Shown one piece after another: positions 5,072-62,767 of a stretch of 64,000 nt of DNA. The notes beneath the pieces are model-generated. The model did no database searches. It was given only the letters and a program-made list of their open reading frames with translations, and was not told where the DNA came from. The DNA lies in assembly GCA_017524525.1 (NCBI GenBank), contig JAFXVM010000006.1:24819-88818 (forward strand), written 5' to 3'. Origin of the DNA: Alphaproteobacteria bacterium (GTDB taxonomy: Bacteria > Pseudomonadota > Alphaproteobacteria > Rs-D84). The translations under genes and the position numbers were made by a program. Each line of letters starts with the position of its first letter. Position 1 is the stretch's first letter.

Positions 5072-5227
5072 CAATAACACCCTTTTGTTTTTTATATTAT
5101 ACAACATGATAGCATATTTTACAAAAAATAAAGTAAAATTTATTTTTTAACAAAAAAATTAAGAAAAACATCTTATGCAAAACCCGCGGATTTATTGGTA
5201 TTTTATGTAATATCAAAAGGAGTTTTT

Positions 5228-5962
5228 ATGCATGATAATATGTTGAACGAATACCACCTTTTTCCGCTTATTGGTGATACAGCACCAAAATTCACAGCAA
5301 AAACTACAAATGGTTTTATAAAATTTCCAGATGATTTTTCTGGCCGGTGGATTATTTTGTTTTCTCACCCTATGGATTTTACGCCTGTTTGTACAACAGA
5401 ATTTTTATCTTTTCAATCAAGATTCCAAGATTTTCAAAAATTAAATACAGATATAATTGGGCTTTCTGTTGGTGCGATATTTTCACATTTGGCATGGTTT
5501 CGTTCGATATATAACGATGTAAAATTCAAAGATTTTAAAAACACAGAAATTACTTTTCCTGTGATTGCAGATATAGATTTAAAAATTTCAAAATTATATG
5601 GCATGATTCATCCAAATTCATCCGACACATCAACAGTGCGCGCAGTTTTTATAATTGACCCGCACGGTATAATCAGGACTATTTTATATTATCCGCAAAA
5701 TGTCGGGCGAAACATCAAAGAAATACTAAGAATATTAACTGCATTGCAAGTTAGTGATACTTTTGGTGTATCTGTTCCTGCAGATTGGACACCTGGCGCA
5801 CCTGTTATTGAACCTGCGCCACAAACAACAAAAGATATGCATAAATGTATTGCCGCAAAAGCAAAAGGCAAAAATAATGAATCTTGGTATTTAACTTTTC
5901 ATGAATTACCAGAATCAAAAATTTACGAAAAATTAACAAAGACAAAAAAGCCAAAACGTTAA
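5228..5962 (+). CDS. peroxiredoxin (AhpC/TSA family, likely 1-Cys/Prx6-type)
   Basis: FTPVCTTE peroxidatic-Cys motif. An RBS AAAAGGAG lies 6 nt upstream of the ATG at 5228. The ORF-track start at 5195 has no RBS. Confidence 0.8.
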   Translation: MHDNMLNEYHLFPLIGDTAPKFTAKTTNGFIKFPDDFSGRWIILFSHPMDFTPVCTTEFLSFQSRFQDFQKLNTDIIGLSVGAIFSHLAWFRSIYNDVKFKDFKNTEITFPVIADIDLKISKLYGMIHPNSSDTSTVRAVFIIDPHGIIRTILYYPQNVGRNIKEILRILTALQVSDTFGVSVPADWTPGAPVIEPAPQTTKDMHKCIAAKAKGKNNESWYLTFHELPESKIYEKLTKTKKPKR

Positions 5963-6306
5963 AATTTTATAGGCGCATCGCGTAAGTTTATCGGCGCAGA
6001 TTCGTTTTCTGGATGCCAACGATATTTTTCTACATCAATGTTTCCGTCTGGTTTGAACCCAACGCCTTCGGCGGTTAATAAATCACGTTGAACCCGTTCC
6101 CATTGACCATCCCAGGTTTTCCCATCTGCAAAAGTGACACGATGCCACGGCAATGAATCCGTTTCACACGAAGCGTTCATCGCATACCCCACAAACCGCG
6201 CGGCACGCGGATGCCCCAACATTTTTGCAATATCGCCATAGGTTGTGACCTTTCCCGCGGGAATCCTTGCAACCAAATCATAAACTTGTTCATAAAAACC
6301 TTTCAT
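5959..6306 (-). CDS. alkyltransferase-like protein (ATL; MGMT DNA-binding fold with Trp replacing the active-site Cys)
   Basis: The motif PWHRV appears in place of the PCHRV of O6-alkylguanine-DNA alkyltransferases. It has the Ogt/Ada C-terminal helix-turn-helix (TYGDIA...) and is 115 aa. Confidence 0.7.
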   Translation of the reverse strand: MKGFYEQVYDLVARIPAGKVTTYGDIAKMLGHPRAARFVGYAMNASCETDSLPWHRVTFADGKTWDGQWERVQRDLLTAEGVGFKPDGNIDVEKYRWHPENESAPINLRDAPIKF

Positions 6307-6590: not shown

Positions 6591-9500
6591 ATGGAAAAAA
6601 CACGGTTTTTTGCATGTTTTGTGCGTATGTTTAACGCGATGTGTTTCGCGATTTGTGCTGTGTTGTTTTCTTCAAACGCTTATTCAACTTGTGCAACTGG
6701 TTATCATGAACAGACCAATCCTTTAGATTCTACTATCTATAATAAAAAAATGGTTGGTTTTATGTATAGAGACCCAACTACAGAAACAGATTTTGTTTCC
6801 TATGGAACTAACTACCATACAACTAACTATGCTACTGGTATATGGGTATCAGCAATGAAAAATCCTGGTTCTCAACTTATGGAAGACACTTTTGTTGGTG
6901 GTCATGCATTCTGCGCAGCAACAGGTAGCGAAAATGATTATCATAAATCCAGGACAACTTTCGCGACATCAAACAACATTACAACAACAGAACCCGGCTC
7001 TTATTGTTGGTGTCAACTTTATGCATTATATGTATACAACTGGCAATATTTTTCTGGAACATGGGTGGCTCTTAACAACCTGGGAAGTCATGACAATTGT
7101 GCAAATAATACCTGTGCACAGGAATGCGCAAATGAAATGCATAACAACCCATCGTTCCGTCAGGCTATTTATTCTGTGCCATATTGTGTTGCTGATGATA
7201 CACCACATATATATCCTATAAACTATTATAATGTCGCGCACGCTACGTGGAATTTAAACCAAAATCACCCATATGGTTACACCACTGGGCAAGAAATAAC
7301 TTTAGGAATTCCATCTCGACAAAATTATGATTTTGTTGCTTGGTGCGATAATGCAGAATTAACAGAAAACTGTATGTTTACAAAGACTATACCTGCAGAT
7401 TCTGTCGGGACAAAATCTTTTTATGCAAAATGGGATTTTGCAAATTCTGATTGCCAAGATGGCTATAAACATGTTTGCTTGATAAACTTTGATGTATTAA
7501 ACCAAAACAGATTAGGATATGCATATAAGCCGATTGATGGTTCTGAAGTTCAAACTGAAGGTGACAAAACAACAGAAACATACAATTTGACCCAACCTGG
7601 TGAATGGGGTGTTTCTTTTGAACACGGGGACTTGAAGGGCATATCTAAGTGTGCTACTACCGCATCTACTTCTGATGGGAACGGTCATCTTTGTTGGTGC
7701 AAAACAACAGATTTTATACCTTCCGACACAGAAGACACGACGTGTCATTCAGAGACAGGACTTTGGACATATTCTGATGATCTCGTGAACGATAATCATT
7801 GTTCTAAATACTGCCCGCTAAGCTGTGTTAAAAAAAATCCTGTCACAGATAACTTATTCGGTAGGAACTCTTATTTTTGGGAATATTTTGCGAACGAAAA
7901 TCTTTCTGAGTGTGTGATTGATAAATATAAAATAAATTATGTATTGAACGGTGGCCTTTTCCCTAATGAACGACTTTCGTATATATATTTGAATCGTGTA
8001 AATGATGTATCTGCACCAACAACATACCAAATCACAGATACTGTTCTTATACCGCGCCCAGCACGAGAAAATTTTGTCTTTGGCGGATGGTACACAGAAC
8101 CAGATTTTTCTGGAGAACCTATTTTTGATGGTTTTGGCCCAGGAGAATTTGGCAACATAACACTTTATGCGAAATGGATAGAAAAAACTTGTTCCGAACA
8201 TTACACTTTGTCTTATCCTGCAAACATTGAAGGCCATTATATCTACAGCGGCAACACATGGGAAGTAACCTTTCCTTTTGGTGTCGTATCAGGAACAGGT
8301 TATACATCACAGTGGAACAAAAACAGATGTGTCTGCAAAGCAACAAGCTTTACACCAAAGAATGGAACAACACAAGATATTGTGTTTGCACCGGAAGGCG
8401 CTGCTGGTAGAACCAAAAATTGTGCCTATTATTGTTCGTACGATATTGCACATGATATTTATACCAGAACACCTACGTTTGCAGGAACGGTGCTTCAAGA
8501 CCCTGTTTGCTTACCGATTGAATATACAATCCATTTCGAATCAAATGGTGGAACAAGTTATAGTGATAGACACTACAACGTTGAATCTGATAATATAACT
8601 CTACCAGAACCTGCGCGCAGAGGATATCACTTTGATGGCTGGTATGAAAACGAGGACTTGTCAGGCACAAGCGTCACAACAGTTTCTTCAGGAACACCGG
8701 GCAACAAAACATTTTATGCCAAATGGAGTTTTGTTGGTTGTCCTGCAGGATATGTCGCACAAGATACAGATTCTGGCAAAATCTGTCAACCAATTACCTA
8801 TACGATACATTTTGTATCTAATAGTGTACTAAATTTTGATGATATACCATACACCATCGAATCAGAAGACATAGAATTGCCTACTGATATTTCGGAACAA
8901 AACGGACTGCCATTTGTTGGCTGGTATGAAGACGACAGTTTTTCAGAACCAGCCATTACACTTGTCCCCAAAGGTTCAACTGGCGATAAAATTTTCTATG
9001 CAAGATGGTTACAAAACACGTGTAGCACAGTTAATACAACCGCTAATAATTTGATTAGTTTGGTGGATGTAGAAACCCGCGGTATATCCACGTACAATTT
9101 TAACCACGGAGATTGGTTTGTTATCTTTGATTACGGCAAATTGCAAGGTAGAGGGATATGCAGCAATATGACAGGGGACATCGGCACAAAAGCAGATACT
9201 GTTACAGAATCAGAAAACGGTTCTAATTGTTGGTGTAATATAACTAAATTCACCCCCGCAAACGGTATAATAAAAGAAGCAACTTCTCCGTGGTTTTCCG
9301 TTGGTAGCCAGTCTGATTGTTCAAAAACCTGTGCTACAATATGTGGTGCATATACTTTTAAAAATCATAATAATTTTTATACTGTTGTAAAACCTGCGTA
9401 TTATTTAACCAATGTTTGTAATGCGCCAGTGTATACTATACATTATAATTCTAATTACGGGACAGAATACGAAGATCAACAATACACAGCTATTTACGAC

Positions 9501-12500
9501 ACTATAACATTACCGACACCAACTCGTGCTGGTTATGCTTTTGCCGGATGGTATGACAATGACAATTTTGAAGGAGAACCTGTGACACAAGTCGCGTCTG
9601 GTTCTACTGGCAACAAAACATTTTGGGCGAAATGGAACTTTATTGATTGTTCGACAGGATATATAGAGCAAGAAACAAATGGTGTAAAAACCTGTGTGCT
9701 AGTTAAACATTCTATTACATATATAGATGAAGATACAGAACTAGACTTAGAACCATCAACTTATGATATCACCACACTTGGAACAAGTTTGCCGTCTGCG
9801 CCACAAGGGTATTCAAATTTTATTGGTTGGTGTTTAGATTCTTCTACTTGTTTTTCAACCATTAATAAAATACCAACTGATTGGACAGGCGACAAAGTTC
9901 TTTACTTAAAAAAATGCCCCACAAACTATAAACTTGGGACACCTTTTTCTGTTGATAGTCGCGCAACAAAATGGGCAGCAAAGTCGGCATTGACTGGTGA
10001 TGCAACTTCAGCCTCAGCTTATGGATTAACAACTCATGGCGAATGGGGAGCAACTTTTGATTCTGGTTATATAGTTGGAACATCTTTATGCAGTCAAACA
10101 CCGGGGGGCACAAGGGGCGCAGTCGGTCAACCAGACGAGACTGGCGAAGGTGACACGAAGTATTGTTGGTGCAGAGTTACAAAATATGGTTTTCCAGAAC
10201 GAGAAGTCAATACCACTAAATGGGTCGCAGAGAACAACACAACAGACAATGTCTCCGCAGAATATTGTAATGGTTGGTGTGCTTATAACTGCGCTCAAAA
10301 AGCAGTGGCACTTACGTCTAATACTACTAGAGTAAACATGGCCACCATGTGCGTACCTGATTCTGAATACACAATAAATTATGTGTTAAACGATGAAAAC
10401 GCTGTTTTCCCGGTCACAGCTATAAAAGTACCGCATTCCTATATTTCTAGTGATTTACCAATCAGTTTAGAAAATGCTATACCTGTGCGTCCTTATTATA
10501 CATTTGAAGGTTGGTACGACAATGCAAATTTTGAAGGAACCGCTATCACAGAAATACTAAGCGGTGCAAATCAGGATATTACTTTGTATGCTAAGTGGTC
10601 GTGGACAGGTTGCCAAGACGGTTCATATTTAGATTCATCAACTAATACATGCGAAACGTGTCCGGATGGTTATATATCTAACGGGAAAACAGCAACCAGT
10701 AAAAACGATTGTTATGTTGAATGGAATTGCTCGGAAAACTTAGCTGGTTGCCCTCAAAATGCGACTTGTACATATATCGACCCTGACCACTTGTCTGGAA
10801 TCGATTATTATGGCAACAATACCCCACACTGCGAAATAAACGCTGTCTGCAATGCTGGCTATGTATCAAATAATGGTGCATGCACAGAACAAGAATACCC
10901 TATACAATACATCATTGATGGCGGAGATTTTCTTGGCACTCTTAATCAAAGCAATATACCGCGCACTTATACTGTTAGTTCCGTCATAGATTTATCAGGT
11001 ATAGTGGCATCACGTTCTGGATACACTTTTGAAGGATGGTACGACAATTCAACATTTGAAGGTTCTGCGATACCAAATTTATCAAATTTAGCACCTGGGG
11101 GAATCACGCTTTACGCGAAATTTGAACCCGTTGTATGTACTGTCATTTATGATAACGAAGGTGACGTAAGTCAAGAAACTTATTCTGGACAAAGCGTTAT
11201 TACTTTGCCAGTGCTTAGAAAAAATTCGTACACATTTGACGGTTGGTGCGAAGAAGATTTGGACACCTGCCCTGGTGGTCCAAAACAAACATTAACTGCC
11301 AGAAACGAAACAGTGAATTTATATGCTAAATGGGGTGATAAAAATTATACCATCACTTATATGGACGGGAATAATACGTTGTCACTTTTGGAACCAGAAT
11401 CTTATACAGAAAACAAATTGCCAGTAGATTTACCAACAACCGCATATTCAAGCAATGATGATTCTGTGTTTGACGGTTGGTATAACAATCCAGAATTAAA
11501 TGGGGATGCTGTCACAGAAATTCCTGCGGGTGCACAAGTGACAAACAAGATATTTTATGTAAAATGGCGTCCAAAATATTATGCTATAACATATATGGAC
11601 GGCGACATAAATGTGACAGCATCAATGCCTTTGATTGAAACAACAACCAGCAATGGTGAAGATATAACACTGGGAGAATTATCCGAAAAAAACGGTATGG
11701 CTTTTGTTGGTTGGTGCGACGATGCACAAGGTAATAATTGTTCTATGACAAAAAGACTTTATGCTAATACACCTGTGATTTTGTACGCACAACGCGAAGA
11801 AGCCACTTATCATATTACTTATAAAAATGGCGACACAGATATTACAAATGATGTTGCACCAGAATTTAGGACATACACTGTTAACAACCCGATTGTGTTA
11901 CCTGGTGCCAATGACGTGTCCGTTGAACATTATGTTTTTAATAATTGGTTGGACGAACATGATACAGTGATTAACACACTGCCATCGCAAACTGTTCCTA
12001 ATGGCGACTGTGTTTTACAAGGGAATTTTAGCCCTGTTCAATACACACTTTCGTTCACAGAAGATTCTATATCAAATATGCCTGCGTCTTCTGTCACGTA
12101 CAATATTGAAAACCTACCTAATTTGAATGCTCGTACACCAACAAATCCAGAATATGTATTCGTTGGATATAAAGATGCTGTTAGTGGTGAAATAATTTCT
12201 GCTATTACGGCCGAAAACGCAGGCAACATTGAATTAACACCAGAATATTCATACGTATCTTGTGACACCGGTTTTAAAACCCGAACATCAAACTCTGCCG
12301 TTTGGAACACCGCAAGAAATGGTATATTGAACAATTATTATGTGACACACCCCACAGCAAACGGTAGTGTATCTAGAGTATACAAACGGAAACCAACATC
12401 AAATTACACCATACCAACAGCCCCAACGTCGGGTTCAAATGCGCGTGCTGTTTGGGTAACGTTGTTTGACCAAGGACAAAGCAACCATGCTGAAATATAT

Positions 12501-15500
12501 GCTATGGGTGAAGCGAGTTGTAATTCAATTGCAGGTGTTGGGTATGAAACAGGCTCGGTAATGTTTTCTTCTTCCCGCCCAAGCAACGATATGAACAATA
12601 TAGCATCCACTGGTAATTATTGCTGGTGCCGTTTAACAAGTTATAAACCAGACAATCAGATTGTGTCAATCCAAGATACAGATTGGATTTATTTAAAAGA
12701 ATTTAGTTCTGCTGAAAATTGCGCTTCGCAAGGTAACGAATATGGTTCTCAATCTTGTGCTGCAAAATGTGGCGAAGCAGTAAGAACAAACGCCTTTTTC
12801 CGTTCACAGATATTTGATGATTTAGGTATATGCGCCGTTGGTATATACGATATTCGTTACAGATTAAATGGTGGCAATTGGGTGCAGTCTGATTCAATTA
12901 ACTGTGCTGAAAATGAATATTTTGATGACAATTCTAATGAATGTAAACCGTGCGCAAACGGGGAAAATTCAAGTGGTCATTCAAATTATTGTATTCCTGT
13001 AGAAACTTCTATGAATTATCATGCTATAAACCTGCCCCAGCCAGTCAGGACAGGATACGATTTCGCCGGATGGTGTGACGATGCAGATTTAACTGTTAAT
13101 TGTAAAACTGAAAAGGTTATTCAAACAGGCACCACCAACGATGTTTATGTTTATGCAAAATGGACACCAATAAATTATCAAATAACATACAATCTTGATG
13201 GTGGCACTTTGCCAAGCGATGTTTCTAACCCAACCGTATATCATATTGATGATACTATAGAATTGCCAATTCCAACCAAAACCGATTATATTTTTGATGG
13301 TTGGTATGAATGCGCAAATTATGAATGCAACAAAGTTTCTGTTTGGGGTCCCGATGAAACCGATGAAGACAAACAATTCTGGGCCAAGTGGAATATTGGT
13401 TCTTATACAATCACTTACGACAGACACGGTGGTGTTTTTGATGCAAATGTTGCAGACACACAAACATATACTGTTAATGACACCTCTAATAACAATTATT
13501 TAACACTTCTGAAACCTAGAAGACAGGGCTATGACTTTGTCGGCTGGTGCCTTGAAGAAGAAACACCATATCAAGAATGTGGTACAGAAGAAATAATCAC
13601 GGACGAAAGCACTTCGGGATGGAGTGGTGATAAAAAACTTCATGCAAAGTGGAATCTGGAAGATTATACCATAACCTATTATGATAACAATAACCCTATG
13701 ACTTTGGAAAACACAGAATGGGAAGACAACAGTACTGTGATAAATGAATATAATGTATCTTCTAAATATACATATCCAATACTATTACCAAAGCCTTTGA
13801 AATCTGGACACAGATTTGAAGATTGGTACAGCACAGTGAATTTAGATAATGACCCAGAAAATTCAACACCAATCAGCGAAATTGCTTTTGGAACAACTGG
13901 CAACAAAGATTTTTATGCAAAATGGGCTTGTGCTGCTGGATATTATGGTGACGGAACAACGTGTACAATTTGTGAGGCAGGCACCTATAGCGACACAACC
14001 AATGCCGCAAATTGCACAGCATGCCTATTAGGCCACACTTCTGCTGCGGGTGCCACCAGTTGTGTGGCGTGCACAAACACCGAACATGTCACAGAATGGG
14101 CTGATGCTCTATGCGGAATCAGTCAATGTGATACAGGTTACAAAATCGAATCCACACAAATAAGCGCAATTTCAACCGATGAAAATGGTATATATATGGC
14201 TTACACAATGCATGCGCCAGAACATCTTCAAAACAATAACATTGGTTGTTATAAAGACGGCGTTTATAATGATTGTAATGATTCTGTCTTTGATAACGTG
14301 TCAAAACCGCACGGTTGGCGTGTTGTGTTCCGTTATGGAACAGTGACGGGAACTTCTGTGTGCAGCACGACAGGTTCGGCACTTAATGTTGCTAACGCTA
14401 ATCAAGATATCTATGATATAAACACCCCTGATACAACAAGCGAAGGTGGCGCATATTGTTGGTGCAAAGCATTAGATTACGACAACCAAAGCCTTGCTGG
14501 ATCTTGGGTTTTTGCAACGGATTTTTCGGGTGCACATGCTACTTGCGAGAATTCTTGTGCGATGAATTGCACTGGTAAAGTATATCGCAATTCTGCGTTT
14601 AGGGAAGTTATGTTTGGTAACACCTATCTCAATAACGTCACGTTGGATACATTAACGTTTGATGAACCTTTGGACAAAGCTATGTGTGTACCAAAAGTTT
14701 TCCCAATAGTTTATCATAATATTGATGAGGTTATTTGGAACAACGGTGAAAACCATCCTGATTTTTATACTTTATTACAAAACGATGTCACCATTGGTCG
14801 TCCAACACGTCAAGGCTTTGTATTTATGGGTTGGTGTGAAACAGAAAATTGTGTTGATGAAACGCCACAAAATAATTATAGTTTTATCCCGAACGATAAA
14901 GCGGAAGGTCAAATAGATTTGTATGCTCAATGGACTTGTGCTGCTGGATATTATAAAAATGGCTCTGCGTGCAATGCTTGTCCACAAGACCCATACGGAA
15001 TTCAATATACATCACCAAACGAAAATACAGATGGAATCAACAGTTGTTATTATAGTTGCGCTAATGTATTTGAAGTTTTTTGTCCTGAACATTCTATCGA
15101 CTGCTTATACACTGGCGATTCAAATGCGACAAATTCTTATGGCTATGAAACCAACAATTGCACTATAAGTTTTAATTGTGACCCAGGTTACGGTGTTGAC
15201 GGTGCTTTGTGTTCTTTGAATACATATTATATAACTTATGTCGATACACTTGAAGATATTGCCAGTGAAAATCGTAAAACAAGCGAATCTTACACTGTCA
15301 ATGATTTACCTGTATCGAAATCGGTATCGCCAGAAAATACACACACCGGTTATGATTTTGACGGTTGGTGCGAAACAGATGAATTGACAGGCGATTGTTT
15401 AACAACAATTACAATTGATGTTAATACTATAGGCGATAAAACCTTCTATGCTCGTTGGACAACACAAAATTATACTATAACCTATCATAATAACGGTGTT

Positions 15501-18500
15501 GATTCAGAAGATTCTTATACATACGGAACAGGAAAAAATTTGAACGCGCCTGAGACACCAACGGGTTATGTTTTTGCGGGCTGGTATACAAACAGTGATT
15601 TTTCTGGCGAAGCAGTGCAAACAATCGCTGACACAGAAACAGGTTCTAAAGAATTCTGGGCAAAATGGACGTGTACTGCTAATTATTATCACGATTCTAA
15701 CACTTGTACGGCGTGTCCTGATTTATATCCAACATCTGTTGTCAATGACAACGAAGGTATTGGAAAATGTTATGCACAGTGTGAAACCATAACAGAATGT
15801 CCAGAACACGCTACATGCTCTTACGCAAATACAATTGACGACAAAGATTACTATAAAGAAAATGCAACAGAAACTTGTGTATCTGGTATTGAATGTGATA
15901 CGGGCTATGGTCTAGAAAACGGTGCATGCGTATTACAAACATACACTGTCACATTTATGGATGGCGAAACACAATTGCGCCAAGAATCATACACGATTAA
16001 TTCTGTTGAACCTATTGTTTCAACAACGCCGGGGAATTCAGGTGGCGAATTTGCTGGTTGGTGTGACAACGAAGATTTAACAGGTGAATGTTCAACGACC
16101 GTGACTGTTCAACCAAGTGATGCGACCGACAAAACATTTTATGCAAAGTGGACATGCGCAAATGGATATTATGGTTCTGCTTGCACACAATGTCCAGAAG
16201 GATACAGAAACACCGATGCAGGCGCAGCAAGAATAACAGATTGTTATAACATATATACTTGTCCAACAGAATGCCCGCCACATGCAGTGAGTTGCACTCA
16301 GCCAACAAAAGAATTTGTTAAGAATTATTATGGCGCAACAGAATTTGAATCTTGTGATATGGATGTAGTTTGTGAAGACGGGTACGAAGCAAAAACTATT
16401 GATAAGATTTACAAAAATAAAATCACTTATGAGAAGTATTTAAACGGCGATTCTTATAAAAAATTAGACAAACAAACCTTTGGTTTCTACGCTTCGTATT
16501 ATAATACACCAGAAGCAATAACTGAAACAAGCCATCTGTTGAATGGTGAAACGGAACAGTTTTTTGATTACGGCTCTGTACGCATGGTTTCCACATGTGA
16601 TAGCGCCGCCTATAGCATATACAACCACGTATTAACTATTAACAACGAACCTGGAAGTAATTGTTGGTGCAAATTTACACAATATTCACCAGACGGAATA
16701 AATTATACAAACCTTGATTTTCCATGGAAACCTGGGTTGCCATGGCAAACCTATGAGCAATGTCTGGATTCCTGCGAGTGCGGTGGTGTTCCTGACAGTT
16801 GGTGGAGAAACCAAAAAGTTTGTAGTGCAAGAGAATATACAATTTATTTTGAAACTAATGGTGGTTATATTGAAACAAATAACAACTATATGCTTTATGA
16901 TGTGACAGCCGACCCGTTTGATTTACCAAAACCAACACGTCCGGGATACGATTTCGCCGGATGGTGCAACAATGAAAACTTAACTGGCGAATGTCCAATA
17001 ACAGTGACAATTCAACCAAGTGATGCAGAAAACAAAACATTTTATGCAAAATGGACACCTGTTGTTTGCGATGAAGACATGGTTGTAGCAACAAGGTTTA
17101 ACACAACAAAAGAACCAATAGCCTATTCATCCATAGAAATTGATGGTGTTGTTCGCACGACTGAAATGTTTTATCCTGGCAGATTACCAAACGCATACGG
17201 TTTAACAGAAAGCGGTACCTGGGCAACAGAATACGATTACGGAACCTTATATGGCGAAGCCGCTTGTAAGGACGCACCATATTATATGGGTGACTATAAA
17301 GCCAGTCCGGTTCCAGACGAAGTGTTTAATACATTTGCTGATACACCGTTTGTAACAATTGATACTGACGATTCTGTTTCCGCAACATGTTATTGCAAAC
17401 CAACTGCGTTTAAACCAACTTTTGGTTCGAAACAGGCTTTGTCCAACAATTGGAAAGAGCACGTTCATACATCCGCCTATGAGTGCAATATACATTGTGC
17501 ATACTATTGTTCACAGGATAAATCACGCGCAACTATACATCTGCTCGGTGAATTTACAAACACAAATTATTGTGCGTACAGAATTAATTATTATCATTTG
17601 AATGATGGGGAATTTGTGGCACCTGCTTTGCATCCAGACCATTATGATACAGGCGACAGGTTTACAATTGGGCAACCTGTGCGTCGTGGTTATACGTTTG
17701 CTGGCTGGTGTGTAGGTCAAGACAGGTGCAACAACACCCAAGAAAGTTTTGAAGTAAATTCTTCAACTGTGGGTGCTGTTGATTTATACGCACAATGGAC
17801 AGCGGGACAATACACTATTACTTATAATATGATGGGTGGCACACCAACATATCAACCAGAACAAAACACTGTCGGTATTATGGTGTATTTTCCAGACGAC
17901 CCAACAAAAGAAGGTTATGATTTTGCAGGCTGGTGTCCGAACAGTGAAACCTGTGAAAACCCTATAAAAACACAAACATGGGGTGGCGCAACAGAGGATA
18001 TAACCATGTATGCACAATGGGATATTAAAACTTATTATATTACCTATGTGTTTAATAATGGCGATGCAAGCGTGACAGAAGAACAAGATTTCAACGAACA
18101 AGTCATATTACGCAAACCAACAAAATCTGGTTTTACATTCGATGGTTATTGTGTTGATACAACAAATTGCAATCCATTGACGTTGCCTGTTGACAGCACA
18201 AGCGATTCTTGGGTTCACAGTGCTTGGAACAGAGATTTAACGCTTTATGCGAAATGGACACAAAATGTCGCAACCGAAGAATGCACGTCAAAGGCTTGGC
18301 TACATGTTGGCGAAGACAAAGCTTGTTTATCAAAAACCCCTGTTGAAAAACCAGTATTAGTAATTCAGGGTAAACACGGCAAATATTATTTACAAGCAAC
18401 CAAGGATTCAAATTTACCAATGAACAAAGATACAACGAAGCAATTACGTATACAAAAAGCAAATGATATATATAATGTACATGATGAAACCGTGTCCAGA

Positions 18501-18533
18501 AACGATACAGATAATTCTTCAACAGGGGTGTAA
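6591..18533 (+). CDS. giant secreted repeat protein (3980 aa): about 25 Listeria-Bacteroides (Flg_new) repeats, at least 8-9 novel Cys-rich 'CWC' modules, ephrin-receptor-like Cys repeats, conserved C-terminal domain
   Basis: Uninterrupted 11,943-nt ORF with an RBS AAGGGAAAGG and a signal peptide. It contains recurring ...YTITY..GG....LP.PTR.GY.F.GW........FYAKW units, recurring GEWG..F..G...G.S.C.....G.YCWC..T modules, and CAAGYYGDGTTCTICEAGTYSD-type repeats. Confidence 0.85.
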   Translation: MEKTRFFACFVRMFNAMCFAICAVLFSSNAYSTCATGYHEQTNPLDSTIYNKKMVGFMYRDPTTETDFVSYGTNYHTTNYATGIWVSAMKNPGSQLMEDTFVGGHAFCAATGSENDYHKSRTTFATSNNITTTEPGSYCWCQLYALYVYNWQYFSGTWVALNNLGSHDNCANNTCAQECANEMHNNPSFRQAIYSVPYCVADDTPHIYPINYYNVAHATWNLNQNHPYGYTTGQEITLGIPSRQNYDFVAWCDNAELTENCMFTKTIPADSVGTKSFYAKWDFANSDCQDGYKHVCLINFDVLNQNRLGYAYKPIDGSEVQTEGDKTTETYNLTQPGEWGVSFEHGDLKGISKCATTASTSDGNGHLCWCKTTDFIPSDTEDTTCHSETGLWTYSDDLVNDNHCSKYCPLSCVKKNPVTDNLFGRNSYFWEYFANENLSECVIDKYKINYVLNGGLFPNERLSYIYLNRVNDVSAPTTYQITDTVLIPRPARENFVFGGWYTEPDFSGEPIFDGFGPGEFGNITLYAKWIEKTCSEHYTLSYPANIEGHYIYSGNTWEVTFPFGVVSGTGYTSQWNKNRCVCKATSFTPKNGTTQDIVFAPEGAAGRTKNCAYYCSYDIAHDIYTRTPTFAGTVLQDPVCLPIEYTIHFESNGGTSYSDRHYNVESDNITLPEPARRGYHFDGWYENEDLSGTSVTTVSSGTPGNKTFYAKWSFVGCPAGYVAQDTDSGKICQPITYTIHFVSNSVLNFDDIPYTIESEDIELPTDISEQNGLPFVGWYEDDSFSEPAITLVPKGSTGDKIFYARWLQNTCSTVNTTANNLISLVDVETRGISTYNFNHGDWFVIFDYGKLQGRGICSNMTGDIGTKADTVTESENGSNCWCNITKFTPANGIIKEATSPWFSVGSQSDCSKTCATICGAYTFKNHNNFYTVVKPAYYLTNVCNAPVYTIHYNSNYGTEYEDQQYTAIYDTITLPTPTRAGYAFAGWYDNDNFEGEPVTQVASGSTGNKTFWAKWNFIDCSTGYIEQETNGVKTCVLVKHSITYIDEDTELDLEPSTYDITTLGTSLPSAPQGYSNFIGWCLDSSTCFSTINKIPTDWTGDKVLYLKKCPTNYKLGTPFSVDSRATKWAAKSALTGDATSASAYGLTTHGEWGATFDSGYIVGTSLCSQTPGGTRGAVGQPDETGEGDTKYCWCRVTKYGFPEREVNTTKWVAENNTTDNVSAEYCNGWCAYNCAQKAVALTSNTTRVNMATMCVPDSEYTINYVLNDENAVFPVTAIKVPHSYISSDLPISLENAIPVRPYYTFEGWYDNANFEGTAITEILSGANQDITLYAKWSWTGCQDGSYLDSSTNTCETCPDGYISNGKTATSKNDCYVEWNCSENLAGCPQNATCTYIDPDHLSGIDYYGNNTPHCEINAVCNAGYVSNNGACTEQEYPIQYIIDGGDFLGTLNQSNIPRTYTVSSVIDLSGIVASRSGYTFEGWYDNSTFEGSAIPNLSNLAPGGITLYAKFEPVVCTVIYDNEGDVSQETYSGQSVITLPVLRKNSYTFDGWCEEDLDTCPGGPKQTLTARNETVNLYAKWGDKNYTITYMDGNNTLSLLEPESYTENKLPVDLPTTAYSSNDDSVFDGWYNNPELNGDAVTEIPAGAQVTNKIFYVKWRPKYYAITYMDGDINVTASMPLIETTTSNGEDITLGELSEKNGMAFVGWCDDAQGNNCSMTKRLYANTPVILYAQREEATYHITYKNGDTDITNDVAPEFRTYTVNNPIVLPGANDVSVEHYVFNNWLDEHDTVINTLPSQTVPNGDCVLQGNFSPVQYTLSFTEDSISNMPASSVTYNIENLPNLNARTPTNPEYVFVGYKDAVSGEIISAITAENAGNIELTPEYSYVSCDTGFKTRTSNSAVWNTARNGILNNYYVTHPTANGSVSRVYKRKPTSNYTIPTAPTSGSNARAVWVTLFDQGQSNHAEIYAMGEASCNSIAGVGYETGSVMFSSSRPSNDMNNIASTGNYCWCRLTSYKPDNQIVSIQDTDWIYLKEFSSAENCASQGNEYGSQSCAAKCGEAVRTNAFFRSQIFDDLGICAVGIYDIRYRLNGGNWVQSDSINCAENEYFDDNSNECKPCANGENSSGHSNYCIPVETSMNYHAINLPQPVRTGYDFAGWCDDADLTVNCKTEKVIQTGTTNDVYVYAKWTPINYQITYNLDGGTLPSDVSNPTVYHIDDTIELPIPTKTDYIFDGWYECANYECNKVSVWGPDETDEDKQFWAKWNIGSYTITYDRHGGVFDANVADTQTYTVNDTSNNNYLTLLKPRRQGYDFVGWCLEEETPYQECGTEEIITDESTSGWSGDKKLHAKWNLEDYTITYYDNNNPMTLENTEWEDNSTVINEYNVSSKYTYPILLPKPLKSGHRFEDWYSTVNLDNDPENSTPISEIAFGTTGNKDFYAKWACAAGYYGDGTTCTICEAGTYSDTTNAANCTACLLGHTSAAGATSCVACTNTEHVTEWADALCGISQCDTGYKIESTQISAISTDENGIYMAYTMHAPEHLQNNNIGCYKDGVYNDCNDSVFDNVSKPHGWRVVFRYGTVTGTSVCSTTGSALNVANANQDIYDINTPDTTSEGGAYCWCKALDYDNQSLAGSWVFATDFSGAHATCENSCAMNCTGKVYRNSAFREVMFGNTYLNNVTLDTLTFDEPLDKAMCVPKVFPIVYHNIDEVIWNNGENHPDFYTLLQNDVTIGRPTRQGFVFMGWCETENCVDETPQNNYSFIPNDKAEGQIDLYAQWTCAAGYYKNGSACNACPQDPYGIQYTSPNENTDGINSCYYSCANVFEVFCPEHSIDCLYTGDSNATNSYGYETNNCTISFNCDPGYGVDGALCSLNTYYITYVDTLEDIASENRKTSESYTVNDLPVSKSVSPENTHTGYDFDGWCETDELTGDCLTTITIDVNTIGDKTFYARWTTQNYTITYHNNGVDSEDSYTYGTGKNLNAPETPTGYVFAGWYTNSDFSGEAVQTIADTETGSKEFWAKWTCTANYYHDSNTCTACPDLYPTSVVNDNEGIGKCYAQCETITECPEHATCSYANTIDDKDYYKENATETCVSGIECDTGYGLENGACVLQTYTVTFMDGETQLRQESYTINSVEPIVSTTPGNSGGEFAGWCDNEDLTGECSTTVTVQPSDATDKTFYAKWTCANGYYGSACTQCPEGYRNTDAGAARITDCYNIYTCPTECPPHAVSCTQPTKEFVKNYYGATEFESCDMDVVCEDGYEAKTIDKIYKNKITYEKYLNGDSYKKLDKQTFGFYASYYNTPEAITETSHLLNGETEQFFDYGSVRMVSTCDSAAYSIYNHVLTINNEPGSNCWCKFTQYSPDGINYTNLDFPWKPGLPWQTYEQCLDSCECGGVPDSWWRNQKVCSAREYTIYFETNGGYIETNNNYMLYDVTADPFDLPKPTRPGYDFAGWCNNENLTGECPITVTIQPSDAENKTFYAKWTPVVCDEDMVVATRFNTTKEPIAYSSIEIDGVVRTTEMFYPGRLPNAYGLTESGTWATEYDYGTLYGEAACKDAPYYMGDYKASPVPDEVFNTFADTPFVTIDTDDSVSATCYCKPTAFKPTFGSKQALSNNWKEHVHTSAYECNIHCAYYCSQDKSRATIHLLGEFTNTNYCAYRINYYHLNDGEFVAPALHPDHYDTGDRFTIGQPVRRGYTFAGWCVGQDRCNNTQESFEVNSSTVGAVDLYAQWTAGQYTITYNMMGGTPTYQPEQNTVGIMVYFPDDPTKEGYDFAGWCPNSETCENPIKTQTWGGATEDITMYAQWDIKTYYITYVFNNGDASVTEEQDFNEQVILRKPTKSGFTFDGYCVDTTNCNPLTLPVDSTSDSWVHSAWNRDLTLYAKWTQNVATEECTSKAWLHVGEDKACLSKTPVEKPVLVIQGKHGKYYLQATKDSNLPMNKDTTKQLRIQKANDIYNVHDETVSRNDTDNSSTGV

Positions 18534-18884
18534 TGTAATTTATCCAAACTAGATACAAGTCTTACCGGCGCAAGTTACACACAAAATTCTGACGGCAGTT
18601 GAGCAACAACATTTAGCTATGGTGTTATTGGTGGTAATGCGATGTGCGGAACACGATGCGTTGGTAATAAATCTGTCCTGAACGGCGTACCAGATGGAGC
18701 AGGAAGCTGTTGCTATTGTCAAATAACCAGTTATAAACCCCAGAATGAAGACACCTGCTTAATATCTTCTGCCCCTTGGGTGCAATCAATGCAATTTTCT
18801 AGTTGTACCCCATATAATTGTGCTAGCAAATGTAGTTCTCTTGTCAAAGATTGGGCGGAACTTCGCAATTCTATGTATAATTAA
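18534..18884 (+). pseudogene. relic/fragment of a CWC-module paralog, in frame with the giant ORF but separated by TAA (18531) and TGA (18600)
   Basis: The same reading frame continues after the giant stop: CNLSKLDTSLTGASYTQNSDGS*ATTFSYGVIGGNAMCGTRC...GSCCYCQITSYKP...W...C...C...C. The TGA sits exactly where the module's invariant Trp (TGG) belongs. Confidence 0.6.
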
Positions 18885-18891
18885 TAGATGA

Positions 18892-20085
18892 TTAAACATC
18901 AAAATCGTATGAATTGATAGATTTTACGATGGCGGCGACGAGTTTATTTTGATGGTCGTCTGATTTCAAAAGTTTTTCTTCGTTTTTATTGGACAAATGT
19001 CCCAATTCTATCAATGCACCCGGCACGGTTGAACGCAACACAGCGAATGGTGCATGACGGACAGACGGTCCCTTTTGTTGTTGAATCGATGCACGAGATA
19101 AAGATTTTGCACAACTGTTTGCGTATTCTTCACTTAATTCCGCCACAGCGTGTTGTTGCAAGGCAGACAAAGCAACACGAATATCTTTGGAAAATTGTTC
19201 AAACCCATTTACATCGATTTTATCAGCAGCATTTTCTGAATCTGCCAATTTTTGCGCTTCTTCGTCCGAAGCCTTTTCAGACAAAGTGTACACAGAAAAT
19301 CCGCGCATATCACGGCTAGGGTTCGCATTAGCGTGCAAAGATATAAACAAATCTGCACGTTTCTTTTCCGCAAATTCCGCCCGTTCAGCCAATTTCAAAA
19401 ACGAATCATTAGAACGAGTTAAATATGTTTTATAACCCGCACTGTCCAATTTAGATTTTAACTTTTTCGCAACTGACAAAACCACAGTTTTTTCTTGAAC
19501 ACCAGATTTTCCAATACACCCCGGATCTTTTCCACCGTGTCCAGGGTCAATTACTATGACATGTTGTGTTTGTTTCGTTTGTGGTTTTGCTTCTTCTTTC
19601 TTTTGTGTTGGTTGCTGGGTAGCCGCCCTGCCCGTTGTTGCAGTGCTCGTTATCCCTCGACCAGTTCCAGATTTAAAATCAATCACCAGACGATAATCAT
19701 TATCGCCATTTGGTTCCAAAATCATTATTTGTTTTTTATCAATCGCATCAATCGCCCCAGAAAGCGCAGCCGCAACCTGTAAAGTAGAACCATTTTGAAT
19801 TTGTGTAATTCTTTTAATCAAAGTTCCTTTGGCTAGATTTGTTTTTGCGTCTGTTTTTCCGTTTGTATTAGATAAATTTACATTTAATTGTTTATCGCCA
19901 TAAGACAAAGTATATGATGGTCGCGACGCCGTTTCAATTACCAGACGTGTCTTACCCCCGGGTTGTGTCCCCGTCCGAATTGAACGTACTGTGTTTGGCG
20001 CAGAAAACGCCACACGTGGTGCAATACCAATAACCAACGCACTGAAACTGACTGTTTTAAAAACCTGCCTTCTCGATATTTTCAT
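18892..20085 (-). CDS. amiC: N-acetylmuramoyl-L-alanine amidase (AmiC-like, AMIN + Amidase_3), Tat-type signal
   Basis: MKISRRQVFK twin-arginine motif and VIVIDPGHGGKDPG...LFISLHANA amidase_3 motifs. The ATG at 20085 is preferred over the upstream extension. Confidence 0.8.
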   Translation of the reverse strand: MKISRRQVFKTVSFSALVIGIAPRVAFSAPNTVRSIRTGTQPGGKTRLVIETASRPSYTLSYGDKQLNVNLSNTNGKTDAKTNLAKGTLIKRITQIQNGSTLQVAAALSGAIDAIDKKQIMILEPNGDNDYRLVIDFKSGTGRGITSTATTGRAATQQPTQKKEEAKPQTKQTQHVIVIDPGHGGKDPGCIGKSGVQEKTVVLSVAKKLKSKLDSAGYKTYLTRSNDSFLKLAERAEFAEKKRADLFISLHANANPSRDMRGFSVYTLSEKASDEEAQKLADSENAADKIDVNGFEQFSKDIRVALSALQQHAVAELSEEYANSCAKSLSRASIQQQKGPSVRHAPFAVLRSTVPGALIELGHLSNKNEEKLLKSDDHQNKLVAAIVKSINSYDFDV

Positions 20086-21552: not shown

Positions 21553-22624
21553 ATGACAGTTGTGAACAACGATATTTTAAATCAAATCTTTGACGATATT
21601 TCTTCGTTAAGGGGGTTTCTTTGACCCAGAAAAACTCCAAAAAGAAATCAATGAATTAACTGAAATTTCTAACCGCGCAGATTTATGGGACAATCCTGAT
21701 TATGCACGCGGGATTTTACAAAAAAAATCTGGTTTAGAAAAACAATTGGCTGAATTGATTAATCTGGAAACCGAATATAAAAATCTTTGTGATTTATATG
21801 AAATGTCCCCAGAAGACGCTGATGTAAACAATGCCATCAATGATTTAGCAATCGCTGCACACAAAGCGAAATTTATTACTTTATTCAGCGACCCGATGGA
21901 CAACAATGGTGCTTTTTTGTTTATTCAATCTGGCGCAGGCGGGACAGAGGCACAAGATTGGGCACAAATGTTATCTCGTATGTACACCAGATGGTGCGAA
22001 AGACACGGTTTTTCTATTGAAACCGTTGAAGAACACGAAGGCGATGTTGCTGGAATAAAAAGCATAACCTTTCGTATTTCTGGCGAACGCGCTTTTGGTT
22101 GGTTAAAAAATGAAATCGGTGTTCACAGATTAGTTCGTATTTCACCTTTCAACGCGAACGGAAAACGCCAAACCAGTTTTGCTTCTGTGGATGTGTGGCC
22201 AGACATAGATGATTCTATTGAAATTGAAATAAACGAAAAAGATTTAAGGATAGATACTTACCGTGCAAGTGGCGCCGGGGGACAACATGTTAATAAAACT
22301 GATTCAGCGGTTCGAATCACGCATATCCCGACAAATACCGTTGTGACTTGCCAGAATGAACGCAGTCAAATTCAAAACAAAGAAATGGCTATGAAGATGT
22401 TGCGTTCTAAATTATACGAATTAGAAATGGAAAAACGCGCCGCCGAAGAAGATGCCGCTAAGGCTGCTCAAAAGAAAATTGAATGGGGCAGCCAGATACG
22501 CAACTATGTTCTTTACCCTTATCAACTGGTTAAAGATGTGCGGACAAATGTAGAAAAGACAGATTCTGTCGCTGTTCTGGACGGCGATTTAGATGATTTT
22601 ATGCTGGCAATGCTGGCAAAATAA
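21553..22624 (+). CDS. prfB: peptide chain release factor 2, requires programmed +1 frameshift at 21622
   Basis: Frame 1 reads [23 protein letters not shown], ending at the in-frame TGA of the canonical AGGGGG-TTT-CTT-TGA-C site. The +1 frame continues [25 protein letters not shown]... into the 21746..22624 ORF, which carries [19 protein letters not shown]. Confidence 0.9.
21610..21625 (+). promoter_or_regulatory. RF2 autoregulatory +1 frameshift site (internal SD-like AGGGGG + CTT TGA C)
   Basis: AGG GGG TTT CTT TGA C, identical in architecture to the E. coli prfB shift site. Confidence 0.85.
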
Positions 22625-25793: not shown

Positions 25794-28700
25794 ATGCCCT
25801 ATTTTTCGCGATTTTTACACAGATTAACCGTATGTGTTTTAGCATTTGTTGGGTTGTTTGCTGTGAATTCTTGTTTGGCAGCATATACTGTTAATTATTT
25901 GTGCGGGGATGGCACGGGTGAAACGCCAGCTGATGCTATAAACATTCAAACAGGCGCTGATTTTGTTCCTGCCGCAAATACTTGTACCACGCCAGAAAAC
26001 TATGAATTCGATGGTTGGTCTGTTAGTGGCACGAACGACGTCATACCTGCAAACACTCCATTTACATGGGAATATACGGAAAACAAATATTTTATTGCAC
26101 ACTATACAAAAAAAACTTCGTGTTCAGCAGGACAGAGTTGGGAAACATATACTTGTGATTTATCCGATGCAATTGTTGGTAATCCAAGCGGGAGCGAGCA
26201 AACCGGGGGCTGGGGAGCCAGAGCCATAAACGGTGCAACAGGAAGCGATTATACAAGACCTTTAAACAATTACCCATTAGCAAAAGGCGAATGGGTTAGC
26301 ATTATGTTTAGAGATACAATCAAAGGTCGAGCTTTCTGCAGTAACAGAGCAGGCAATGATTGGACTCTAACTTACCCAGACGACTATAAAGATGAGTGGC
26401 TGGCAAACGATTCAGAACTTATCGCTGCTGGCACAGGAGATTATTGTTGGTGCAAAATTTCTAATTCGCTGCGATACGATAACATTAAATCTGATTGGGT
26501 GTTTAGTAGTGGACATTTTTCATCATCGACCTGTTCTAGTTATTGTGCTATATTTTGTGCTCACCAATTCCGTGCACCATCATCAATTAATTCGGATTTT
26601 CGTCCTGAACTGTATAATGCCGTAACACGCGCCGAACAAGAAAAATGTGAAATCAATGCTAATTTATATTCTATAACCTATTCTAACCTTTTGAATGCGA
26701 CATGGGATGAAAATCAATTACATCCTGATTCTTATACAACTGGCGAAGAGATAACAATTGGAATTCCAACCCGCGAAGGATATACTTTTGATGGGTGGTG
26801 TGATGATGCCGAATTAACACAAAATTGCACAACAGAAAAAGTCATTCCCGCTGGTTCAACCGGCGATAAAACATTTTATGCTAAATGGACCGCTTTGCCT
26901 TGTGGTGTTGGCTATGAATCTCAAACAGACATATTTAGTGACACGGATTATTTTGCACCAGGTCGTGCTTATTCATATTTTGGTGCTGCTGATCGTAACG
27001 AACACTTTGTCAGCAACGGTTTAAACATAGATTTAGACAATACTTTGGAAGCATTGCCTGCTGGAAGATTCGAAATATTTTTCGCAACTGATGCTGATTC
27101 AAATACAGGCTTTCATGCCATGATGTATGGACGCGCGCAATGCAGTTCTACAGTTGGTTATACGGGCAACTGGGAGTATTCAGGACACGGTCAGTCTGTT
27201 CCAGATACAATCAGTGAAACCCCAGGTAATTATTGTTGGTGTCAATTTGATAAAATGGTTCCATATACAAAATCTGGTTCACAATGGGTGCCAAATGGTG
27301 AACCCATAGATTTTGTGACGAAATGGCTGTCACCAGGTGGTCAAACATGTACTCCATATTCTTGTGCTGGGTATTGCACCAAAAAGTTTCATGTCCAAAT
27401 ACCAGAACGTCAGGCACTGTATGGTCCGGGCGCCTTGCCACCATGCAAAATAAAAACATACACTATCAGTTATGAACTGGACGGTGGCGAATGGCCAATT
27501 GCACTTGTCAGCAAGCCTGAAACCTATAATATTACTTCCGCAACTATAAATTTACCAACGCCAGCCGAACGTGAAGGTTATACATTTACAGGCTGGTGTG
27601 ACAACGCAGAATTAACACAAAATTGCTCAACAGAAAAAATTATCGCGACAGGCTCAACTGGCAATAAAACGTTTTATGCAAAATGGACAGAGAATATTGT
27701 TGAACCTGAAGAGCCTGTTGAACCGGATACAGAACAAGAACCAACACCTGTGGATGAACCGGATGAGTGTGCTTTGGCTTCATGCGTTGTGACTATTGAT
27801 TTTGGTAATGGTCAAACAACCGAAAAGACATTTGACAACGGCGATGATTTGGTTATGCCTGTTCAAGCAGAACCAACCGGATCTGTGTTTAACGGATATT
27901 GTGAAGGTACACCAACGTGCACAGAACCACAAATGCGTTTAACCACAGAACAGATTGAAAATGGTGCAACTATGTATCCACAATACATACCTGTATCAAC
28001 AGGGATGACCGCACCGTCTGTTGAAGAAAGAACTTGTTTAAACGATGCCTGCGAAATAATTTTGAATTATGATGATTCAACAGAATCTTCTGCGAATATC
28101 GATTTGAATTCTGGATCGAACAACAGATCAGCTTCTGCTCTTCGCCGTGGCGGGATATTAAGAACGGCCACAACTAATCGTTCTGCCAGAACATTTAATC
28201 GTGGCGAATTATTAATTACACCTATGCTGGTCAAACAAGGTTATACTTTGCAAGGTTATTGCGTTGATGAAACTGATACATGTTCTGCACCAATTGCGGC
28301 AGTATCAAACATAAATCTTAACACAAAGAGCCGTGTGACTATTACACCAAAATGGAGTTCTAGTGGCTCTACCCCTGAAACCTATACCATAACTTATGAT
28401 ACTGCGGGTGGAACACCAACATATTCATCCGCAACATATACCATTGGCGATACCGTATCTTTGCCTGCTGACCCAACAAAAGAAGGTTATACTTTCAAAG
28501 GCTGGTGTGTAGACAGTGCAACTTGTGCAGAACCAATAGATACATCTACTTGGGCTGGTGCAACAAAAGATGTGACGCTTTATGCACAATGGGAAATTAT
28601 CTCGAATTCTGGATGTCAACCGGGATATTATTCATCACAAGATTCTGGGGAATGCACAATATGTGAAGAAAATCATTATTGCATTGGTGGCGAAAATTCG

Positions 28701-28976
28701 ACTATGAAATCTTGTCCATCTGGGCTGGTGGCACCAGTTGGAACGGTTTCTGCCAATGAGTGTGGCAAAATCATGCGGATTGGTGAAAATGTTCTTTATT
28801 TGACACAAAAACAACAAACTACACCTGCTTTGGCGGTCAAAATAGATGACAAGATATACTATGCCAAAACAACACCTGTGTCACAAATAGAACAACCGAC
28901 AAAACATTTTCTAAGAACAAGAATAGACGGTATCGAATATTCTATACACGATAATGCAATTCAAAGGAGAAATTAA
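25794..28976 (+). CDS. secreted CWC-module / Listeria-Bacteroides-repeat protein (1060 aa), mini-paralog of the giant protein
   Basis: Signal peptide; two CWC modules (GEWVSIMF...GDYCWCKISNS, ...GNYCWCQFDKM); three Flg_new repeats nearly identical to giant-protein repeats; a C-terminal ~65 aa homologous to the giant's C-terminus. Confidence 0.85.
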   Translation: MPYFSRFLHRLTVCVLAFVGLFAVNSCLAAYTVNYLCGDGTGETPADAINIQTGADFVPAANTCTTPENYEFDGWSVSGTNDVIPANTPFTWEYTENKYFIAHYTKKTSCSAGQSWETYTCDLSDAIVGNPSGSEQTGGWGARAINGATGSDYTRPLNNYPLAKGEWVSIMFRDTIKGRAFCSNRAGNDWTLTYPDDYKDEWLANDSELIAAGTGDYCWCKISNSLRYDNIKSDWVFSSGHFSSSTCSSYCAIFCAHQFRAPSSINSDFRPELYNAVTRAEQEKCEINANLYSITYSNLLNATWDENQLHPDSYTTGEEITIGIPTREGYTFDGWCDDAELTQNCTTEKVIPAGSTGDKTFYAKWTALPCGVGYESQTDIFSDTDYFAPGRAYSYFGAADRNEHFVSNGLNIDLDNTLEALPAGRFEIFFATDADSNTGFHAMMYGRAQCSSTVGYTGNWEYSGHGQSVPDTISETPGNYCWCQFDKMVPYTKSGSQWVPNGEPIDFVTKWLSPGGQTCTPYSCAGYCTKKFHVQIPERQALYGPGALPPCKIKTYTISYELDGGEWPIALVSKPETYNITSATINLPTPAEREGYTFTGWCDNAELTQNCSTEKIIATGSTGNKTFYAKWTENIVEPEEPVEPDTEQEPTPVDEPDECALASCVVTIDFGNGQTTEKTFDNGDDLVMPVQAEPTGSVFNGYCEGTPTCTEPQMRLTTEQIENGATMYPQYIPVSTGMTAPSVEERTCLNDACEIILNYDDSTESSANIDLNSGSNNRSASALRRGGILRTATTNRSARTFNRGELLITPMLVKQGYTLQGYCVDETDTCSAPIAAVSNINLNTKSRVTITPKWSSSGSTPETYTITYDTAGGTPTYSSATYTIGDTVSLPADPTKEGYTFKGWCVDSATCAEPIDTSTWAGATKDVTLYAQWEIISNSGCQPGYYSSQDSGECTICEENHYCIGGENSTMKSCPSGLVAPVGTVSANECGKIMRIGENVLYLTQKQQTTPALAVKIDDKIYYAKTTPVSQIEQPTKHFLRTRIDGIEYSIHDNAIQRRN

Positions 28977-51337: not shown

Positions 51338-53340
<2,003 letters not shown>

Positions 53341-62672: not shown

Positions 62673-62767
62673 CAACGTTCTTTTTCTCTTTTACTTTTGC
62701 AGTATAATGTTTTGCAATTTTTTTTGCAACAACTAAAATTAATATTTAGGAATTTTTTTATTAAAAA

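Follow-up and report, generated by a model that had tools for sequence, protein, structure and literature searches.

A stop-interrupted Cys-rich module behind a giant gene of an Rs-D84 alphaproteobacterium, probably the disconnected last domain of the same gene

A giant gene and the module behind its stop codon

The window (the whole stretch of DNA analysed here, 64,000 nt) comes from a member of the order Rs-D84. Both Ca. Enterousia and the order Rs-D84 are uncultured bacteria of the farm-animal gut, with genomes of ~0.75-1 Mb (PMC12306168). The window carries a giant gene whose TAA stop codon is followed, in the same frame, by 351 bases (the tail) that have one internal TGA and are closed by TAA TAG at 18879-84. 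The features at the locus are listed below, with L numbers as labels for the contigs used in comparison.

6591..18533, + strand: giant gene, truncated allele of 3980 codons ending in TAA 18531-33 (ORF list, translation)
6816-17570: nine internal CWC modules of the giant gene
18336-18350 and 18515-18529: inverted repeat of 15 nt, 14/15 complementary, flanking the last 164 nt of the giant
18515..18587, + strand: recombination patch of ~73 nt that carries the TAA, L003/L016-like within an L009-like background (edges approximate)
18531..18533, + strand: premature stop TAA at the junction of linker and last module, directly 5' of the opening Cys codon of the module; AAA (Lys) in L009
18534..18878, + strand: probable remnant of 115 codons from the giant's C-terminal CWC module, which is complete and has all six conserved Cys (HMM, alignment, contiguity in L009)
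18600..18602, + strand: second nonsense codon, TGA (TGG>TGA, G>A), at the conserved Trp of the module
18642..18884, + strand: 80-codon ORF inside the probable remnant, starting with the ATG of the Met in ...GGNAMC...
18879..18884, + strand: TAA TAG, where TAG (18882-84) would be the original stop of the gene and TAA (18879-81) a third nonsense change, in the window lineage
18892..20085, - strand: convergent N-acetylmuramoyl-L-alanine amidase gene (Pfam Amidase_3, homologues, cluster members)

The giant protein has 17 Flg_new repeats (Listeria-Bacteroides, PF09479, by Pfam) and nine internal Cys-rich modules of ~100-125 residues each, which we call CWC and which are set between the repeat blocks. 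Their common pattern is G-x-W-x-x-x-F-x-x-G...C ... C-[WYV]-C ... [FY]-x-P ... W ... C...C...C. The N-terminus, judged by eye, is a Sec-type signal-like segment, and the remainder of the 12-kb ORF is open and without any other lesion. Two contigs, one of 367 kb from an ENA metagenome and one from Logan, encode an identical giant protein and match the window at 100% through the tail. The complete giant ORFs that we have seen range from 3980 to 4782 aa. A conserved domain of ~70 aa (pattern EC.S.AWLH[VI]G[ED].KACL ... [NM][IV]HDE[TS]V, no match in Pfam) lies at ~18270-18495, 5' of the low-complexity linker, and is found in all giant allele types, in the same region of L003-L016. The nearest named relatives of the neighbouring genes are labelled "MAG: Alphaproteobacteria bacterium" and Candidatus Enterousia merdequi (~80% for the amidase). 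Elsewhere in the window, accD and accA are fused at 3049-4800 (- strand) into a single ORF of 583 aa that joins the carboxyltransferase beta (zinc ribbon and Carboxyl_trans) and alpha (ACCA) parts, and a permuted (two-piece) tmRNA, typical of Alphaproteobacteria, is located at 53010-53337 (+ strand; the 12 protein letters of its tag peptide are not shown).

The CWC module represents an undescribed domain family of Flg_new giant proteins. Searching 1.84 billion representative proteins with its profile retrieved 1193 of them at E <= 1e-3 and 363 at E <= 1e-10, while neither Pfam nor NCBIfam holds a family for it and no fold in the PDB matched with E < 1. An AlphaFold model made from the alignment of nine modules (pLDDT 71, pTM 0.69) has four strands and a C-terminal helix. 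Two more genes in the window, at 25794-28976 (+ strand) and 61443-62675 (- strand), have two CWC modules each.

The sequence-only reading had pointed to a CWC module, in frame and interrupted by a stop, right after the TAA of the giant, and this is what we find, with the same coordinates and sequence. The tail matches an HMM built from the nine internal modules only with 40.8 bits (E = 4.3e-14, model positions 3-119 of 124), a match far beyond chance. Its translation is CNLSKLDTSLTGASYTQNSDGS, stop, ATTFSYGVIGGNAMCGTRC...GSCCYCQITSYKP...W...C...C...C...LRNSMYN followed by two stops. There is no indel, and the six Cys and the motif residues are all intact, so that as a remnant it would still be remarkably clean, with decay only incipient. 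The TGA does fall in the Trp column of the G-x-W-x-x-x-F-x-x-G motif, as had been stated, although "invariant" was too strong a word for this residue: the Trp is near-invariant, present in eight of the nine internal modules and absent from module 8. The C-terminal module of another allele (L004) has Phe in this column.

Orthologous loci and the three stop codons

We have reached the orthologous loci by using the convergent amidase gene, a conserved flank, as anchor. The tail protein itself, with its Trp restored, gave a single match among 5.8 billion proteins (P0001, 81 aa, 78% identical), in an index that is not exhaustive for this query, as the fused giant of L009 was missed. Scanning the GTDB genome set and JGI metagenomes with the tail alignment, and then with a conserved 27-nt DNA pattern, found nothing. 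P0001 sits on L003, a contig of 2.1 kb with the same locus from a related strain, which reads ...SSTGA, TAA, CNLSKLDKSLTGASYTQNSDGS, TGG, TTTFSYG... and then enters the amidase. The TAA is thus kept there and the Trp codon is intact.

The most informative allele is L009, the closest strain in which the gene is intact. Its flanks are mostly 90-100% identical to the window in each 100-nt window, and its amidase falls in the same 90% cluster. The giant ORF has 4782 aa and runs unbroken through the same module to a C-terminus that reads ...HDETVSGNSGGSSETNKCDLSKLDKSLNGINYTQNSDGSWATTFSYG...LRNSMYNE and stop (in a longer form, ...NIHDETVSGNSGGSSETNKCDLSKLDKSLNGINYTQNSDGSWATTFSYGVIGGNAMCGARC...LVKDWTGLRNSMYNE and stop). 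When both DNAs are aligned, the TAA of the window corresponds to AAA (Lys) within ...SSETNK, directly followed by CDLSKLD..., the TGA to TGG and the terminal TAA to GAA (Glu), and the following TAG is common to both. The comparison with orthologous loci that had been proposed for this site therefore has an answer, a tail that in L009 is fused and open at all three of the window's stops. Since the ORF of L009 is intact through the same sequence, the tail would be the ancestral C-terminal module of this gene. The suggestion of a "decayed paralog tail" was right in substance as far as a decayed tail is concerned and wrong about the paralogy, the module being orthologous to the C-terminal one of the same gene.

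Other alleles (L004/L005, L008 and L010-L015) have quite different terminal modules, all fused to the giant and separated from the amidase gene by a few bases. Among the top family matches, roughly half, with coordinates read by eye, have no more than about a dozen residues between the end of the best-scoring module and the C-terminus. Both the other alleles and the family matches indicate that a terminal CWC module is the normal architecture of these proteins, and that the tail in the window would be that module, cut off.

The three stops differ in their distribution. The TAA at 18531-33 is common to the window, L003 and L016 (NCBI GCA_045599085.1). Codon 18600-02 is TGG in L009, L003 and L016, and TGA in the window and in L001, L002, L017, L018 and L019, the TGA being the derived state, on the window branch. 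At 18879-84 the sequence is GAA TAG (Glu and stop) in L009, L003 and L016, and TAA TAG in the window and L017-L019. The combination of TAA and TGA recurs in five further contigs (L001, L002, L017, L018, L019), which come from at least three samples in addition to the record of the window, and is therefore no sequencing or assembly error. Two of the three lineages with the TAA have acquired second lesions, the TGA in the window and a frameshift in L016, where a deletion in the low-complexity linker makes the giant end 20-odd codons earlier and leaves the tail out of frame; only in L003 does the tail stay open and in phase. The exact tail of the window, with TAA, TGA and TAA, is carried by L017, L018 and L019, whose flanks differ from the window by 1.2-1.6%, which indicates a sub-lineage, present in several samples, where the allele with both stops has become established.

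These last three contigs all end at the base matching 18527, four nucleotides 5' of the TAA. L017 and L018 look like the ENA and NCBI records of one scaffold (same length of 2695 bp and same gene layout), and L019 is an independent assembly from another sample. The assembly graphs evidently branch at 18527, presumably because different giant bodies are joined to the same tail in co-resident strains. Damage of another kind was observed in two further alleles. In L006 (~5215-6171, - strand) a deletion of the giant has left its last ~260 codons fused, between GEFE and C, to the N-terminus of an HMGL-like gene. A premature stop 5' of the WLH domain in L007 (3933-5588, - strand) leaves over a separate ORF of 207 aa.

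A mosaic gene and the age of the lesion

The giant gene itself is a strain-specific mosaic, a patchwork swapped between strains. The giants of the window and L003 are essentially unalignable upstream of ~18505. Between the window and L009, identity reaches 95-100% only over 17600-18450 and falls to ~55% upstream of 17550. Against this background the surroundings of the TAA behave in a particular way. The window differs from L009 at 20 of the 73 positions of the patch and at 11 of the 291 in 18588-18878 (Fisher p = 1.5e-8). The relation is reversed with L003, from which it differs at 3/73 positions in the patch and at 54/291 in 18588-18878 (Fisher p = 0.002), and with L016 (3/73 and 53/291 over the same intervals). 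L003 and L016 are identical to each other in the patch (0/73) and differ at 32/291 positions outside (p = 0.0008). The partition of single sites agrees: 31 sites at 18629-18792 group the window and L009 against L003 and L016, while the sites private to L009 cluster at 18537-18574, and the right breakpoint lies between 18574 and 18629.

As the TAA patch is near-identical to two otherwise diverged strains, homologous recombination between strains has moved the TAA, with either the window as the recipient of the TAA or L009 as a repaired allele. This is not the recombination that had been suggested from the sequence. A "remnant of recombination among family members" does not fit a tail with 19-30% protein identity, and no DNA similarity, to the other modules in the window; the exchange found instead is one between strains, over ~73 nt. 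The same figures rule out a recent duplication of, or gene conversion from, another module. Clustered differences are found in the amidase and in the upstream genes as well, so mosaicism is general at the locus. Between L003 (1261-1400) and L016, strains that are otherwise 95-100% identical, identity drops to 73-80% in a patch of ~110 nt where the tail ends. Within it the conserved Trp of "KDW" is changed to Gln in L016. This may be a second imported patch or local decay.

Measures of selection have to be read in the light of this mosaic. The tails of the window and L003 give a dN/dS of 0.18, with a dS (0.58) near that of the amidase (0.62, with dN/dS 0.02), and neutrality is rejected (p = 6e-7). 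Purifying selection (omega of 0.16-0.25 at a dS of ~0.6) is visible only in comparisons across the deep split. Ongoing constraint in spite of the shared TAA was considered and dropped once L009 had shown that the window's tail resembles L009 itself, and L003 only in the TAA patch. The omega between window and L003 is low because, outside the patch, the comparison spans the old divergence of two module lineages, one of which (L009) is intact. The low dN/dS (~0.2) thus belongs to the deep history, before the lesion. Recent comparisons give higher values, 0.5-0.65 between the window and L009 and 0.54 between L003 and L016, the latter compatible with 1 (p = 0.19) and not with 0.2 (p = 0.004), from small counts and including the clustered, probably recombinational ~110-nt patch. 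On the window branch there are ~4 synonymous and 5-6 non-synonymous changes, two of them nonsense, too few to prove relaxed selection. Nonsense changes are, nevertheless, not tolerated in translated sequence, and this branch has two. The presence of the TAA allele in three lineages, with the tail open after the TAA in L003 and L016, could be read as maintenance.

Interpretation, alternatives and known systems

These observations, taken together, suggest that the tail is the giant's own last domain, disconnected by a premature TAA and drifting since then without translation, i.e., a young and quite ordinary remnant. We give this reading a probability of about 0.85. The original giant would have had a Cys-rich CWC module at its C-terminus and stopped a few bases short of the amidase gene, until a premature TAA at the junction of linker and module cut this last module off. 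The TAA has been carried between strains on a short patch by homologous recombination, and the nonsense allele would be young relative to the split of the lineages. Free of selection after the TAA, the remnant would then have gained TGG>TGA and GAA>TAA in the window lineage, and another lineage would have acquired a frameshift upstream of it. A giant shortened to 3980 codons is probably still made, minus its last module. Several features expected of a remnant are present, namely an uninterrupted orthologous ORF (L009), three disabling lesions and no translation start of its own 5' of the mid-module ATG. The ALTERNATIVES readings put to the test concerned the genetic code, readthrough, an independent small gene and a cassette or inversion.

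On a different view of the same lesion, a strain profits from losing the terminal module, perhaps by escaping a phage, a host antibody or a competitor that recognises it. The TAA patch would then spread by recombination between strains as a population-level on/off allele, and recombination with intact alleles could still repair the remnant. The patch is indeed far more alike between diverged lineages than its surroundings (0/73 as compared to 32/291 for L003 and L016), lesions of independent kind affect the 3' end in 5 of ~10 alleles (TAA, TAA plus TGA, frameshift plus TAA, the premature stop of L007 and the deletion of L006), and the open remainder of the 12-kb ORF fits a selected truncation. 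Mosaicism is, however, general at the locus, so selection is not required for the patch to be shared; the strains sampled are few, and recurrent lesions are equally expected if constraint on a dispensable terminal domain is relaxed. We consider this reading unlikely, and the same low odds apply to the idea that strains switch the terminal CWC domain on and off through short recombination tracts exchanged with co-resident strains, for which the clean remnant would be the substrate of re-activation. A further reading is a readthrough or switchable extension, in which reading through the TAA (and here also the TGA, by Trp-tRNA) would add the module to a fraction of the giants. It would account for a tail that is in frame and has all key residues, for a TAA kept in three lineages and for a TGA exactly on a Trp codon, where misreading by Trp-tRNA would put the correct residue back. 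Among natural misreadings, the near-cognate one of UGA by tRNA-Trp is the most frequent. Descent from an intact ORF, though, explains why the tail is in frame. Its first stop has the context UAA-U (TAA then T is a strong termination context in E. coli, an organism other than the host here), and the RNA around it (18520-18660, 141 nt) is less structured than shuffled controls (z = +2.4). Two successive events would be needed in the window, as the TAA blocks the frame whatever the TGA does, and in L016 the frameshift has put tail and giant in different frames. The genome has RF2, complete with the autoregulatory site, no suppressor tRNA was found in the window, and in and around the tail we found neither a terminator-like site, promoter enrichment, a stable fold nor an Rfam match. 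Consequently, readthrough is very unlikely, and the TGG<->TGA switch envisaged by the sequence-only reading is not supported, its TGA being a true stop behind another stop.

That the TGA falls on a Trp column could also mean a TGA = Trp code (code 4), which has practically no chance of being correct. The giant has 92 TGG and no TGA as Trp codons, the relatives have TGG at 18600-02, code 11 keeps the long ORFs of the window open, and TGA is the stop codon of four of them. The genome also keeps prfB (RF2; ~21560-22624, + strand) with a canonical programmed +1 frameshift site, AGGGGG TTT CTT TGA C at 21610-21625, that depends on UGA. TGA is then a genuine stop in this genome, and this code was rejected. 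The frameshift site also explains why the ORF finder lists only the downstream part of prfB (21746-22624). The 80-codon ORF expressed alone as a small gene is highly improbable too, even though its ATG is kept in all four type-A alleles, GGTGG lies ~8 nt upstream of ATG 18642 and a gene caller accepted the 81-codon counterpart in L003 as P0001. Such a product would start in the middle of the domain, without the first two predicted strands, and would have no signal peptide, though the Cys-rich domain is otherwise found only in exported giants. The Met is a plain residue of the module and GGTGG is two Gly codons; conservation at the protein level reaches upstream of the ATG (omega 0.16 for 18534-18641), an interval with no in-frame ATG, GTG or TTG; promoter-like matches are not above chance, and no called gene is on record for the ORF in the window's strain. 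It is most likely a by-product of the remnant and not a gene. The idea that the tail is a promoterless donor cassette, silent itself and used to replace modules of the expressed gene, or takes part in site-specific switching like that of pilS, vls, MgPar or shufflons, is extremely improbable. A giant that is a mosaic of strain-specific blocks would suit it, as would the 14/15 inverted repeat that flanks 18351-18514 and the three contigs that break at 18527, one independently assembled from another sample. The tail is, however, the only such piece, and it follows the gene without a gap, in the same frame and direction. Lacking any DNA similarity to the remaining modules, it cannot act as a homologous donor, and no recombinase gene adjoins it. 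The arms of the repeat belong to different parental types, the left one being found only in the L009-type body and the right one only in the TAA patch; the inverted repeat therefore looks like a by-product of the mosaic, not conserved in relatives, and an invertible segment was rejected. At the switch point the only homopolymer or short tandem repeat is a GGGG run 5' of the TAA, so simple-sequence phase variation is not supported, and the lesions of the tail are base substitutions within a diverged patch.

If the tail is a disconnected last domain, an in-frame domain after a stop, with a TGA on a Trp codon, needs neither recoding nor switching and would be the normal appearance of a gene truncated very recently by a nonsense change. 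Along these lines, a low dN/dS measured against a distant relative can simply date from before the lesion. The small genomes of Rs-D84 appear to keep surface-protein genes of 12-14 kb that are strain-specific mosaics of Flg_new repeats and an undescribed Cys-rich family, and the 3' end of the giant is repeatedly damaged among strains. For annotation, the giant of this strain would be a C-terminally truncated allele and P0001 a fragment.

Several known systems share part of this picture. TGA is read as Trp in the Mollicutes and in some reduced endosymbionts, and the window genome resembles theirs in being small and AT-rich with a TGA at a Trp position, but it keeps RF2 and uses TGA as a stop. 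Silent cassettes provide antigenic variation in Neisseria (pilS), Borrelia (vls) and Mycoplasma (MgPar), and as in these systems the window has a promoterless partial copy of a surface domain beside a highly variable expressed gene. Unlike them, the tail is a single copy, has no homology for gene conversion and no conserved flanking repeats, and is explained by descent from an intact 3' end. The A1 protein of phage Q-beta is a readthrough extension, and UGA is leaky via tRNA-Trp; the window has in common with this case an in-frame coding sequence after a stop and a UGA where Trp belongs, but its first stop is a UAA in strong context with no stimulatory structure, two stops stand in series, and the frame is broken in the sister allele L016. 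Listeria monocytogenes inlA, in which premature stop codons give a truncated internalin A, is another comparison. What the giant would lose is a Cys-rich module instead of an LPXTG anchor, its host belongs to the uncultured Alphaproteobacteria of the gut and is a relative of Ca. Enterousia, and, unlike in inlA, the nonsense codon is on a short recombination patch common to diverged strains. As in inlA, a nonsense mutation would remove the C-terminal part of a large exported repeat protein (the giant also has the same Listeria-Bacteroides, Flg_new, type of repeat), several independent truncating alleles are found in the population, and the in-frame untranslated remnant persists for a time.
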